64,000 nucleotides of DNA from Octopus vulgaris (Eukaryota). The notes below the pieces were generated by a model. That model was not told where the DNA came from and searched no databases. It worked only from the letters and a program-made list of their open reading frames with translations. Location of the stretch: positions 26,350,001-26,414,000 of the forward strand of contig OX597829.1 in the NCBI GenBank assembly GCA_951406725.2, given 5' to 3'. Numbering within the stretch: position 1 is the first letter of the stretch; each line of letters opens with the position of its first letter. A program made the position numbers and the translations under genes. Below, in pieces: positions 16,827 to 25,769 of this stretch.

Positions 16827-17059
16827 ATAATTAATAATCATATTTTATTATTTAGTATAACCGGAATATATCTAGTTATTTATATAAAAATGTAAGAAAA
16901 CATTTAATTAAATTCTAATTTCAAATATTTTAGTTTTAATAAATAATTAATAATCATATTTTATTATTTAGTATAACCGGAATATATCTAGTTATTTATA
17001 TAAAAATGTAAGAAAACATTTAATTAAATTCTAATTTCAAATATTTTAGTTTTAATAAA
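16827..17059. repeat. 116-bp tandem duplication in very AT-rich sequence
   Basis: ataattaataatcatatttt...gtataaccggaatatatctag... occurs twice; ccgg at 16861 and 16977. Confidence 0.9.
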
Positions 17060-17736
17060 AAATTCTAGTATAATATTAGATGATATTATTCTAAATTTTT
17101 AATCTTGATTTAGAAACTCAATTTTAAGAGTAACGTCAATTTTAAGAATAATAGTATAATCAATATATATATTTATATTATAATTATAAAAATTATAAAA
17201 AATTAGATTTTTACTGATTTTTACTGACTTTTAATAATTTCAAAATATTTTAAAATATTTTATAATCATATGTTTAGTAATTTAGTTTACCTATTACCGA
17301 TCTAGAAATTTAATTATTTATTAAAGTTAACATATAAATATAATAAAAGAAAGTAGACTATTCCCATCATACATTCACTTCCGGCTTCTCCTGATTTATT
17401 ACTATTCACTTCCCTTACACGGTAAATATAAAATATAGAAAATACCTTTTAAGAACTTTTAAATGTTAAAAAGAATTATCTCCCCTATACAGTAGCTCTC
17501 AATGTTGGATTATACGATTGCGTCATTTGGTAGCCATGTTTAATTCGCGGAGAGAAAATTACCATACAGATAAGTTAATATTTCTTTTTCCTAAAATTTC
17601 TTTTTTTCCCTCTATTTTTATTCTACATTTCTATTCCTTATTTACTAAAGTAAATTTATTCCGACAACTTCTAGTTATATAATTTTAGCTTGTCATGTCT
17701 TTATATAGGATGTAAATAGCAAAAGAAGTTCATATA

Positions 17737-18649: not shown

Positions 18650-19400
<751 letters not shown>

Positions 19401-19947: not shown

Positions 19948-19957
19948 TGATGATGAT
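19592..19957. repeat. Compound (AAT)/(AAC)/(GAT) trinucleotide microsatellite
   Basis: Directly visible; source of the poly-N/I/L ORFs. Confidence 0.97.
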
Positions 19958-20180
19958 GGTGGGGGGACAAACACATACACGCATACACACACAAACATAC
20001 ACACACACACACGTACATACATACACACACAGATATATATATATATATATATATATATCAACAATAAAGGAACGGCCATAATAGGCCATTCACCCACTAG
20101 AAATAACAGCCAAAGCTTCAACCGCAAATAAAAGTTAATTCAGTAAACCAGGAGAAAATTAAAAAAACATTTACCCTGTA

Positions 20181-20287
20181 ATTTCTTATACGATATACCG
20201 TTTCATCTGCTGATTAATGGTAAACTAACCTGATTAAATTAAATCAAGCCAATCTTCCACAGGCCCTCAGATTCTTCAGTAAGAAAT
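20181..20287 (-). ncRNA. Type I hammerhead ribozyme (array copy 1)
   Basis: Reverse complement of the motif at 22059-22165. Confidence 0.88.
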
Positions 20288-20673
20288 AGCCCAAGACGGA
20301 ACAGATATTTTCACGAGGCATTTCCGACGTTGCCAAGTTTATATCTGACCTAAAATTTTCAAATCGTCGCACTCGCGCCAAATTTATCGGCAGCAAATAA
20401 ATATAAGCCGTCGATTCCATTACGGAATTAACCAGAAAATTCATAATTAATCAATATAGGCTGCCAAAAAAAATTTTGTAGAATTCTTTTGCCACCAGCG
20501 GCCTAGTAGGAAAAAATTAAAATAGTCATAGACCATTTTTAAGTTCAACATCAACAATAAAGGAACGGCCATAATAGGCCATTCACCCACTAGAAATAAC
20601 AGCCAAAGCTTCAACCGCAAATAAAAGTTAATTCAGTAAACCAGGAGAAAATTAAAAAAACATTTACCCTGTA

Positions 20674-20780
20674 ATTTCTTATACGATATACCGTTTCATC
20701 TGCTGATTAATGGTAAACTAACCTGATTAAATTAAATCAAGCCAATCTTCCACAGGCCCTCAGATTCTTCAGTAAGAAAT
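20674..20780 (-). ncRNA. Type I hammerhead ribozyme (array copy 2)
   Basis: Reverse complement of the motif at 22059-22165. Confidence 0.88.
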
Positions 20781-21166
20781 AGCCCAAGACGGAACAGATA
20801 TTTTCACGAGGCATTTCCGACGTTGCCAAGTTTATATCTGACCTAAAATTTTCAAATCGTCGCACTCGCGCCAAATTTATCGGCAGCAAATAAATATAAG
20901 CCGTCGATTCCATTACGGAATTAACCAGAAAATTCATAATTAATCAATATAGGGTGGCAAAAAAAAATTTGTAGAATTCTTTTGCCACCAGCGGCCTAGT
21001 AGGAAAAAATTAAAATAGTCATAGACCATTTTTAAGTTCAACATCAACAATAAAGGAACGGCCATAATAGGCCATTTACCCACTAGAAATAACAGCCAAA
21101 GCTTCAACCGCAAATAAAAGTTAATTCAGTAAACCAGGAGAAAATTTAAAAAACATTTACCCTGTA

Positions 21167-21273
21167 ATTTCTTATACGATATACCGTTTCATCTGCTGAT
21201 TAATGGTAAACTAACCTGATTAAATTAAATCAAGCCAATCTTCCACAGGCCCTCAGATTCTTCAGTAAGAAAT
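21167..21273 (-). ncRNA. Type I hammerhead ribozyme (array copy 3)
   Basis: Reverse complement of the motif at 22059-22165. Confidence 0.88.
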
Positions 21274-21657
21274 AGCCCAAGACGGAACAGATATTTTCAC
21301 GAGGCATTTCCGACGTTGCCAAGTTTATATCTGACCTAAAATTTTCAAATCGTCGCACTCGCGCCAAATTTATCGGCAGCAAATAAATATAAGCCGTCGA
21401 TTCCATTACGGAATTAACCAGAAAATTCATAATTAATCAATATAGGGTGGCAAAAAAATTTTGTAGAATTCTTTTGCCACCAGCGGCTAGTAGGAAAAAA
21501 TTAAAATAGTCATAGACCATTTTTAAGTTCAACATCAACAATAAAGGAACGGCCATAATAGGCCATTCACCCACTAGAAATAACAGCCAAAGCTTCAACC
21601 GCAAATAAAAGTTAATTCAGTAAACCAGGAGAAAATTTAAAAAACATTTACCCTGTA

Positions 21658-21764
21658 ATTTCTTATACGATATACCGTTTCATCTGCTGATTAATGGTAA
21701 ACTAACCTGATTAAATTAAATCAAGCCAATCTTCCACAGGCCCTCAGATTCTTCAGTAAGAAAT
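21658..21764 (-). ncRNA. Type I hammerhead ribozyme (array copy 4)
   Basis: Reverse complement of the motif at 22059-22165. Confidence 0.88.
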
Positions 21765-22058
21765 AGCCCAAGACGGAACAGATATTTTCACGAGGCATTT
21801 CCGACGTTGCCAAGTTTATATCTGACCTAAAATTTTCAAATCGTCGCACAATATATTGATTAATTATGATTATTATTTAATTGATTAATATATGATTAAT
21901 TATGAATTTTCTGGTTAATTCCGTAATGGAATCGACGGCTTATATTTATTTGCTGCCGATAAATTTGGCGCGAGTGCGACGATTTGAAAATTTTAGGTCA
22001 GATATAAACTTGGCAACGTCGGAAATGCCTCGTGAAAATATCTGTTCCGTCTTGGGCT

Positions 22059-22165
22059 ATTTCTTACTGAAGAATCTGAGGGCCTGTGGAAGATTGGCTT
22101 GATTTAATTTAATCAGGTTAGTTTACCATTAATCAGCAGATGAAACGGTATATCGTATAAGAAAT
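22059..22165 (+). ncRNA. Type I hammerhead ribozyme (array copy 5); predicted cleavage after GUA at 22157
   Basis: Helix I auuucuua/uaagaaau (8 bp perfect); CUGAAGA; helix II aucug/cagau enclosing ~58 nt with inner hairpin gauuggcuugauu/aaucagguuaguu; GAAA; helix III ACGGUAUAUCGU (near-palindromic); UA. Confidence 0.9.
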
Positions 22166-22550
22166 TACAGGGTAAATGTTTTTTAAATTTTCTCCTGGTT
22201 TACTGAATTAACTTTTATTTGCGGTTGAAGCTTTGGCTGTTATTTCTAGTGGGTGAATGGCCTATTATGGCCGTTCCTTTATTGTTGATGTTGAACTTAA
22301 AAATGGTCTATGACTATTTTAATTTTTTCCTACTAGGCCGCTGGTGGCAAAAGAATTCTACAAAATTTTTTTGCCACCCTATATTGATTAATTATGAATT
22401 TTCTGGTTAATTCCGTAATGGAATCGACGGCTTATATTTATTTGCTGCCGATAAATTTGGCGCGAGTGCGACGATTTGAAAATTTTAGGTCAGATATAAA
22501 CTTGGCAACGTCGGAAATGCCTCGTGAAAATATCTGTTCCGTCTTGGGCT

Positions 22551-22657
22551 ATTTCTTACTGAAGAATCTGAGGGCCTGTGGAAGATTGGCTTGATTTAAT
22601 TTAATCAGGTTAGTTTACAATTAATCAGCAGATGAAACGGTATATCGTATAAGAAAT
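22551..22657 (+). ncRNA. Type I hammerhead ribozyme (array copy 6)
   Basis: Same as 22059-22165 with one substitution in the helix II insert. Confidence 0.9.
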
Positions 22658-22880
22658 TACAGGGTAAATGTTTTTTAAATTTTCTCCTGGTTTACTGAAT
22701 TAACTTTTATTTGCGGTTGAAGCTTTGGCTGTTATTTCTAGTGGGTGAATGGCCTATTATGGCCGTTCCTTTATTGTTGATGTTGAACTTAAAAATGGTC
22801 TATGACTATTTTAATTTTTTCCTACTAGGCCGCTGGTGGCAAAAGAATTCTACAAAATTTTTTTTGCCACCCTATATTGA

Positions 22881-22933
<53 letters not shown>

Positions 22934-22964
22934 GGCGGGCTTCTTTCAGATGATGATGATGATG

Positions 22965-24739: not shown

Positions 24740-25312
24740 TACATACACACACAAATATAAATGATGTGAAAAAACAAGGTGATCCAGGGAAATGGAATAA
24801 AATACAGTCCGGCTAAAATAGAAGATAGGAGGAATGGAAATATAAAGAGGCAAAAATGAATGAAAAAAATATAAGTTAAAATAAAACAAAAATTAGTTAT
24901 GGTTTCAAATTTTAGCTCGGGGTTAACAGAGGTGCTGGATATCGACCCCCCCCCCCCAGTACCAGACTCGAAAGAACGAAAGGTACAGTCGGCCCCTGTG
25001 GAATTGGAACGAAATTCCGTTAGGCATTTTGTCCGGCGTATTAGGTAGTGCAAAGAAAAATAATAAAAGTAGAAAGAGGGCGAAGTCAATAAAAATAGTG
25101 TGAAATCAATGAAATGGAAGTTTTAAGAAAATAATTTTTTATAACGTAAGGTGTACTAGCCATCTGAATGTGGCTAGCCACTGGGGGTGGGGTGTTACTG
25201 ATGCTTTTAGCCCCAGGCGATCAACGTCACCAGATGGACTTTATACACTATCTCAGTGCCCTTGTGTTATTTGCAAAGGGAGGTCATCCTCCCTCGAGGA
25301 CCTAAGTACTAC

Positions 25313-25355
25313 ATACGGACTATAGTTTCAAGGTAATTGCCTCTCGTCAACGCAT
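25313..25355 (-). ncRNA. Type I hammerhead ribozyme (C3U variant)
   Basis: augcg UUGACGA gagg-caauua-ccuu GAAA CUAUAG UC cguau; all three helices pair, palindromic helix III, GUC site. Confidence 0.78.
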
Positions 25356-25568
25356 GGTAAGCACCGGTCTTCGATGAAGGAGTCTCCATACGCTCGACAA
25401 CGTAAGGTGTACTAGCCATCTGAATGTGGCTAGCCACTGGGGGTGGGGTGTTACTGATGCTTTTAGCCCCAGGCGATCAACGTCACCAGATGGACTTTAG
25501 ACACTATCTCAGTGCCCTTGTGTTATTTGCAAAGGGAGGTCATCCTCTCTCGAAGACCTAAGTACTAC

Positions 25569-25611
25569 ATACGGACTATAGTTTCAAGGTAATTGCCTCT
25601 CGTCAACGCAT
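25569..25611 (-). ncRNA. Type I hammerhead ribozyme (C3U variant), second copy
   Basis: Identical to 25313-25355. Confidence 0.78.
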
Positions 25612-25769
25612 GGTAAGCACCGGTCTTCGATGAAGGAGTCCCCCTGCAAATAATATATAATGTTTTTCACAGCAACCACTGTCACTGATTTAGAAAAACT
25701 GTCTGAAAGCAATAATAAATCTCTGAACGAGATATAAACAGTAACCGCTCGACAAGTTATCCTTTATAT

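Follow-up and report, generated by a model that had tools for sequence, protein, structure and literature searches.

The window analyzed here, a 64,000-nucleotide stretch of the Octopus vulgaris genome, carries a young insertion of a non-coding hammerhead repeat (retrozyme), whose 492–493 bp units form two arms joined 5'-to-5' via 43 bp of filler, the whole array lying within (AT)n, between an (AT)13 and an (AT)24.5 run. The back-to-back junction at 21850–21892 is real, and the locus is a typical member of its family, for which a single such junction is ordinary and in which the outer ends of the arms are fixed family-wide at unit ~132 and ~235, one per arm. Two-ended priming with fixed sites is well supported, and we regard as quite probable the complete reading, i.e., a young retrozyme insertion in (AT)n made with the help of a Penelope-like element (PLE) acting in trans, by two-ended fixed-site priming on mixed linear and continuous RNA templates. 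As the family offers hundreds of young, near-identical insertions obeying a hard rule of one start site per DNA end, with a donor of 492 nt and a target as simple as (AT)n, and as the genome also contains intact candidate helper ORFs, the insertion mechanism is directly testable. Animal retrozymes are also tied to the PLE machinery in this way by the anatomy of their insertions, not by co-occurrence, and a testable explanation is offered for the inverted shape of Penelope-type elements.

Units are numbered such that position 1 directly follows the predicted hammerhead cut (window 22158), and two classes of ends are distinguished, S (short site, unit 125–135) and T (tail site, unit 228–242). 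Both outer ends of the array are, as an earlier note on this DNA had it, 3' ends in the ribozyme sense that merge into the (AT)n, each sharing an AT with its run, and the ~3.6 and 2 rounds of the unit estimated there agree with the 3.64 and 2.02 units measured (Table 1). The inner end of the right arm would be at unit 223 instead of 228 if one lost T were allowed, and hairpins are predicted within the tail at unit 143–163 and 186–221.

Table 1. Features of the insertion locus in window coordinates, followed by the retrozyme–PLE chimera found elsewhere in the assembly
Feature	Position	Strand	Remark
Host repeat copy without insertion, near-identical, stand-in for the empty site	18821..19032	+	
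Left host flank, part of a short interspersed host repeat	19955..20032	+	collinear with the uninterrupted copy 18821-19032
Left target run (AT)13	20033..20058	.	
Left arm, 3.64 units	20057..21849	-	outer 3' end unit 132 (S), inner 5' end unit 309
Type I hammerhead motif	20181..20287	-	predicted cut 20189
Type I hammerhead motif	20674..20780	-	predicted cut 20682
Type I hammerhead motif	21167..21273	-	predicted cut 21175
Type I hammerhead motif	21658..21764	-	predicted cut 21666
Junction filler, 43 bp	21850..21892	+	copies of unit 223-240 and 226-235
Right arm, 2.02 units	21893..22885	+	inner 5' end unit 228, outer 3' end unit 235 (T)
Type I hammerhead motif	22059..22165	+	predicted cut after 22157
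Type I hammerhead motif	22551..22657	+	predicted cut after 22649
Tail, ~100 nt, unit 133-235	22782..22885	+	extra sequence at the right outer end
Right target run (AT)24.5	22884..22932	.	
Right host flank	22933..22949	+	same host repeat as the left flank, continued
Chimera	L220:1124-3221 and L269/L270 (G000:C57 and C13:22.94 Mb)		no AT spacer at the join, (AT)n runs outside

The unit is predicted to self-cleave as a type I hammerhead, the core of which is present in each unit (six motifs in the window) and consists of an 8-bp stem I, CUGAAGA, a 68-nt stem II, GAAA and a 3-bp stem III, with GUA at the predicted cut. A search of Rfam returned no match to the unit at the gathering score, and, in predicted folds, the free fold of the unit beats the hammerhead fold by 1.7 kcal/mol. 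In a sister family showing 64–70% identity (328 identical positions across the unit alignment), the core is kept, and stems I and III differ yet still pair, i.e., they covary. This sister retrozyme family (L199–L228) has a 491-bp unit, a CUGAUGA core, a palindromic loop III and the same two-site layout. The GC content of the unit is about 34% (retrozymes being expected below 45%), and its tandem arrays, of up to 21 units, are dispersed on many chromosomes; no open frame of at least 200 aa was found in the 21-unit array, and a tblastn search of the window with PLE protein gave no match, so that the RT plus GIY-YIG ORF of an autonomous PLE was not found there.

The census of the family comprised 111 loci, namely the window, 37 loci found by similarity, 60 found by their 132 end (the first 60 not already in the set, among 100 listed of 181 exact matches), an array of 21 units and 12 loci at which the 132 end was not matched exactly. 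One locus (L058) was left out as a duplicate of another (L057); the two, 63 kb apart on G000:C11, represent one insertion duplicated together with its flanks, with the array length and internal structure differing between the copies. Two arms were present at 83/111 loci and were divergent at all 83, each such locus thereby showing the inverted 5'-truncated copy that is characteristic of PLEs. S was paired with T at 80 of the 83 (the S end of L131 having been assigned by hand), three had one off-class end and none had two ends of the same class, while at the other 28 loci BLAST showed a single arm, ending at S in 19 and at T in 9, a few of these carrying a second, very short arm within the flank. 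Within the subset chosen blind to the ends, S+T was seen at 30/31 loci (p about 1e-9 for 30 free choices). The T pattern being commoner than the S pattern (482 forward matches), 40 further loci, mostly of subfamilies at 83–98% identity, were drawn by their T end, and these gave 27 S+T pairs, two loci with a short S arm in the flank, three with another or unseen end, eight one-armed loci and no T+T pair. The rule was also obeyed by 18/20 two-arm loci of the sister family, where the query favored two-arm matches. As for the target, (AT)4 or longer was found within 40 nt on both sides at 102/110 loci, and any target-site duplication would be masked by the (AT)n.

The earlier note had read the different stopping points of the two arms as circular permutation and had expected other copies to show random permutation together with frequent divergent pairs. 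The different stopping points (132 vs. 235) and the frequency of divergent pairs (83/111) stand, whereas random permutation of the outer ends is ruled out by the two family-wide fixed sites, one per arm, and free permutation is confined to the inner ends, since the outer ones fall into the S and T classes. Its proposal that both DNA ends of a break in (AT)n were primed is supported by the census, and the pattern that it held to be fatal, in which all arrays would be direct tandems with fixed ends, is not what the family shows. No paper stating a one-site-per-end rule or describing inverted retrozyme arms was found among the openly accessible main texts searched. Directly adjoining an insertion of the family, at L127:2385-2617, is a further relative of unit 1–222, the third and a more diverged one.

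The insertion anatomy is the known PLE layout of an inverted copy plus a tail, here with a tail of ~100 nt. The available text of Craig 2021 (PMC8557442) describes an inverted truncated PLE copy, a one-ended 30–40 bp tail and a (TA)n bias, and names the origin of the tandem/inverted structures and of the microsatellite bias as open; that of Arkhipova 2013 (PMC3846280) describes the same layout. In the accessible portion of Frangieh 2024 (PMC11167929), a purified PLE protein, predicted to be dimeric, cleaves and extends both strands, two internal RNA start sites bound the tail, and the start site used in vitro is alike on both strands. The family thus shares with endonuclease-positive PLEs, as far as these texts portray them, the head-to-head inverted copy, a tail that is often one-ended, the (TA)n target and two internal RT start sites downstream of the hammerhead, but has no ORF and has a tail of about 100 nt, not 30–40; and whereas the tail is optional or often one-ended in the same portions of the PLE papers, the pairing here is strictly one of each, with no same-class pair among 113 two-arm loci. 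This one-each rule is one of genome anatomy, and the equal start-site use on both strands that the PLE shows in vitro counts against the reading.

Metazoan retrozymes are defined, and their mobilization by PLEs is proposed, in the available parts of Cervera and de la Pena 2020 (PMC7229834) and of Li, Clavereau and Pollet 2026 (bioRxiv 10.64898/2026.07.22.740005), which also propose target-primed copying of a circle. In being non-coding, low in GC and tandemly repeated, with a single type I hammerhead and dispersed multimers, the unit is like that of the non-LTR retrozymes described there, the differences being the 492-bp unit and 68-nt stem II, and the inverted arms and fixed ends, which the consulted portions of those papers do not describe (the main text of PMC7229834 nowhere uses the word “inverted”). 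L1 twin priming and dual priming, as described in what is available of Meyer 2010 (PMC2837659), resemble the present case in that both target strands prime, the arms diverge and the junction forms by microhomology or end-joining; in L1, however, the first end primes on poly(A), the internal site of the second varies and an internal deletion is left behind, whereas here both sites are internal and fixed, overlap of the arms is usual and most loci (83/111) are inverted. Twin priming of the L1 type was therefore rejected, there being no poly(A) and both sites being fixed.

Mobilization by a Penelope-like RT-endonuclease in trans is, by this analogy, likely, and two young PLE families in the same genome are candidate helpers. 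The first (L179–L197) has many intact 781-aa RT plus GIY-YIG frames, in which a CxxxxCxxC motif precedes the nuclease; its targets are (AT)n, and its ~40-nt tail includes a palindromic hairpin. The second (L269–L288), with a 4271-bp tandem period and a 32-nt AC-rich tail, also has RT and GIY-YIG, its protein being about 46% identical to that of the first. In both families, copies terminate in (AT)n, either at a short site or at a tailed one, and the inverted copies seen had one short and one tailed end in 4/4 cases (3/3 in the first family and 1/1 in the second). A comparison of the unit with 30 GIY-YIG loci and with the 3' regions of the two families (150 of 6136 candidates scored) gave no match, similarity to the 3' regions did not exceed that of shuffles, and no homology to a PLE terminal repeat was detected, a further difference from the metazoan retrozymes described; since none of these PLEs has sequence recognizably in common with the unit, the PLE partner is inferred. 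Between the S and T sites and the ends of the second family there is a resemblance in short motifs, which is a lead only, and a simple CUGANGA scan of the 3' regions of both families revealed no hammerhead. The best lead is the chimera L220/L269, present twice in the assembly as a single event, in which a sister-family retrozyme arm (S end) abuts, directly and 5'-to-5', a truncated second-family PLE copy that ends at its tail; it is possibly a two-RNA insertion pointing to the helper PLE, or else a neighboring insertion. Two further candidates, near L090 (a GIY-YIG fragment) and near L127 (a PLE), were rejected as chimeras, with other DNA separating each from the retrozyme.

In the proposed mechanism, a Penelope-like RT-endonuclease would act in trans on retrozyme RNA at (AT)n, and reverse transcription would start from both ends of the break, each at a different internal RNA site. 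The enzyme is taken to be asymmetric, probably a dimer, and to bind a single RNA so that one active site lies on unit ~132 and the other on ~235; both cDNAs would extend until falling off and would then be joined 5'-to-5' by microhomology or templated filler. Each site works alone, as the one-arm loci end at S or at T. A helix joining the S and T sites was given no weight, being found only in the fold of an excised 100–245 piece and not in the whole-unit fold. We advance a broader proposal tentatively, deeming it possible rather than probable: Penelope-type integration might be an obligatory asymmetric two-ended reaction, in which a dimer gives each end of the break one RNA start site, so that tail and inverted copy are one phenomenon; the sites could lie 100 nt apart or on two RNAs (retrozyme and PLE mRNA), the enzyme could roll a retrozyme circle up to 21 times, and L220/L269 would name the helper PLE.

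That one RNA molecule templates both arms in most events is suggested by the agreement of the arm haplotypes and by the coincidence of the inner ends beyond chance. With homopolymer-adjacent positions masked, the arms agree at 33/33 informative sites and 1/575 locus-by-site cells is mixed (149 expected), agreement for which one expressed variant per cell would be an alternative source; the inner ends lie within 12 nt of each other at 10/66 loci outside the cut window (2.7 when shuffled), and both arms end at the cut at 17/83 loci (8.2 expected). These same figures argue against dual priming, in which usually one RNA molecule would serve each DNA end and the enzyme would only set the site for each; it is postulated for L1 in the available text of PMC2837659, and the L220/L269 chimera, with a retrozyme arm and a PLE copy between (AT)n runs, speaks for it and counts against there always being one RNA, but as a single event, which may have arisen when a retrozyme inserted next to an older truncated PLE, it leaves dual priming unlikely as the usual route. 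Coincident inner ends would also be predicted if one primed cDNA folded back and copied itself into the inverted arm, the self-priming put forward for Penelope head-to-head repeats in the consulted part of PMC3846280. Each arm carries sequence absent from the other at 14 short loci, however, and the arms of L082 and L105 do not overlap at all, which excludes fold-back copying in those loci; both end classes occur in one-arm loci, and the arms of the window meet at unit 309 and 228, with no mirror point. Self-priming is accordingly very improbable as a general account and could still explain a minority of loci. Least credible of all is an assembly or read fold-back chimera: no read or contig was seen to bridge the junction, none of the listed pieces of contigs from four runs compared with 21450–21974 spanning it, a search that is uninformative for it, but the flanks, which are not mirror images of each other, match the uninterrupted paralogue on both sides, the arms stop at different fixed sites, the S/T rule holds in >100 loci plus diverged subfamilies, and contigs of the independent run X2 show arms of these two orientations meeting at other joints.

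The filler of the window junction fits the preferred reading of two primed cDNAs being joined. The jumbled centre of ~45 bp described earlier is indeed 43 bp of filler, its unit-derived pieces coming from the start of the right arm only: 21852–21869 is an exact 18-nt copy of unit 223–240, and 21880–21889 copies unit 226–235, with an AT-rich 21870–21879 in between. In 300 shuffles of the filler, the longest unit match averaged 9.3 nt, with a maximum of 13. In effect, the beginning of the right arm was copied twice and the copying aborted each time, both copies deriving from just 3' of the predicted 15-bp hairpin at 186–221. Stalling and restarting two or three times at the base of this hairpin, whether the RT or host end-joining was at work, might have produced the filler; the slippage-type origin proposed in the note is supported by these exact copies. 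Polymerase theta is a host end-joining polymerase that could make such filler. Across the 83 family junctions, 44 show an overlap (41 of them of 1–6 nt), 8 are blunt, 16 have 1–9 nt and 15 at least 10 nt of filler, and the filler at 21850–21892 is typical, as family fillers, judged by eye, mostly repeat adjacent sequence. Inner ends in the 205–245 stall zone are weakly enriched (24/194 vs. 16.2 expected, p = 0.03).

The inner ends also bear on what kind of RNA was copied. They fall at the predicted cut (unit 488–30) in 61/194 cases, against 13.8 expected, and in a length-unbiased set 32/80 arms stop at the first predicted cut and 4/42 at later ones (p = 0.0003), the stop rate going from 40% at the first encounter to 10% later. 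Since many short arms stop at the predicted cut, much of the template would be linear RNA starting there, and these data point to linear ribozyme-cut RNA as part of the template pool; the rolling-circle copying suggested in the note is accordingly narrowed, a circle being plausible as the likelier template for the long arms only. A mixed RNA pool is thus proposed, in which ribozyme-cut linear RNA would give the short arms and a covalently continuous template the long ones, as in the window, where a monomer circle has a slightly better than even chance of having been the template and an uncut multimer a slightly less than even one. Where both arms end at the cut (L074, L078, L083, L088, L102, L104, L107, L130), the S arm usually starts from unit 5–8 and the T arm from 22–24, a join that recurs within the unit's first 30 nt, which are AT-rich.

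Crossings of the cut are seamless in 274/284 cases, the remainder being seven with one substitution, one with a small duplication at the cut and two other junctions, which makes template jumping between cut monomers unlikely as the main source of arrays. That the long arms came instead, after the same two-site priming, from linear, incompletely cut multimers or from later unequal crossover, no circle being needed, is a serious contender, if appreciably short of an even chance. Later-cut stops are enriched among the arms that pass the first cut (17/115 vs. 8.2 expected, p = 0.003), and 13 variants in nine loci mark only some of the units, both of which count against a pure circle; in L038, whose arms end 4 nt apart, the innermost units of the two arms share one variant, L037 and L060 have unit-specific variants common to both arms, and multimeric retrozyme RNAs are on record in the available text of PMC7229834. 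Against linear multimers stand the drop in the stop rate after the first encounter, the presence of just four of the 13 subset variants in both arms, where about 22 would be expected if both arms copied one multimer as variable as the present arrays (assuming same-unit priming and real singletons), and the existence of one arm of 21 near-identical units. In long arrays of L094, L070, L118 and L060, the same variant recurs in non-adjacent units, for which dimer/trimer templates, later crossover or polishing errors would all serve as sources. The longest array (L141–L142, G000:C13:51750667-51761166) has a 21.15-unit arm (10.4 kb) and a 96-bp arm, its units differing mostly by singletons.

As regards the surroundings of the insertion, the target itself (19955–20058 plus 22884–22949) is a ~210-bp near-identical duplicate of a part of the host repeat 1.1 kb upstream and sits between (TAA)n and (ATG)n runs, and the window also holds two unrelated two-copy tandem duplications, at 25143–25640 and 16827–17064, with periods of 256 and 116, respectively.
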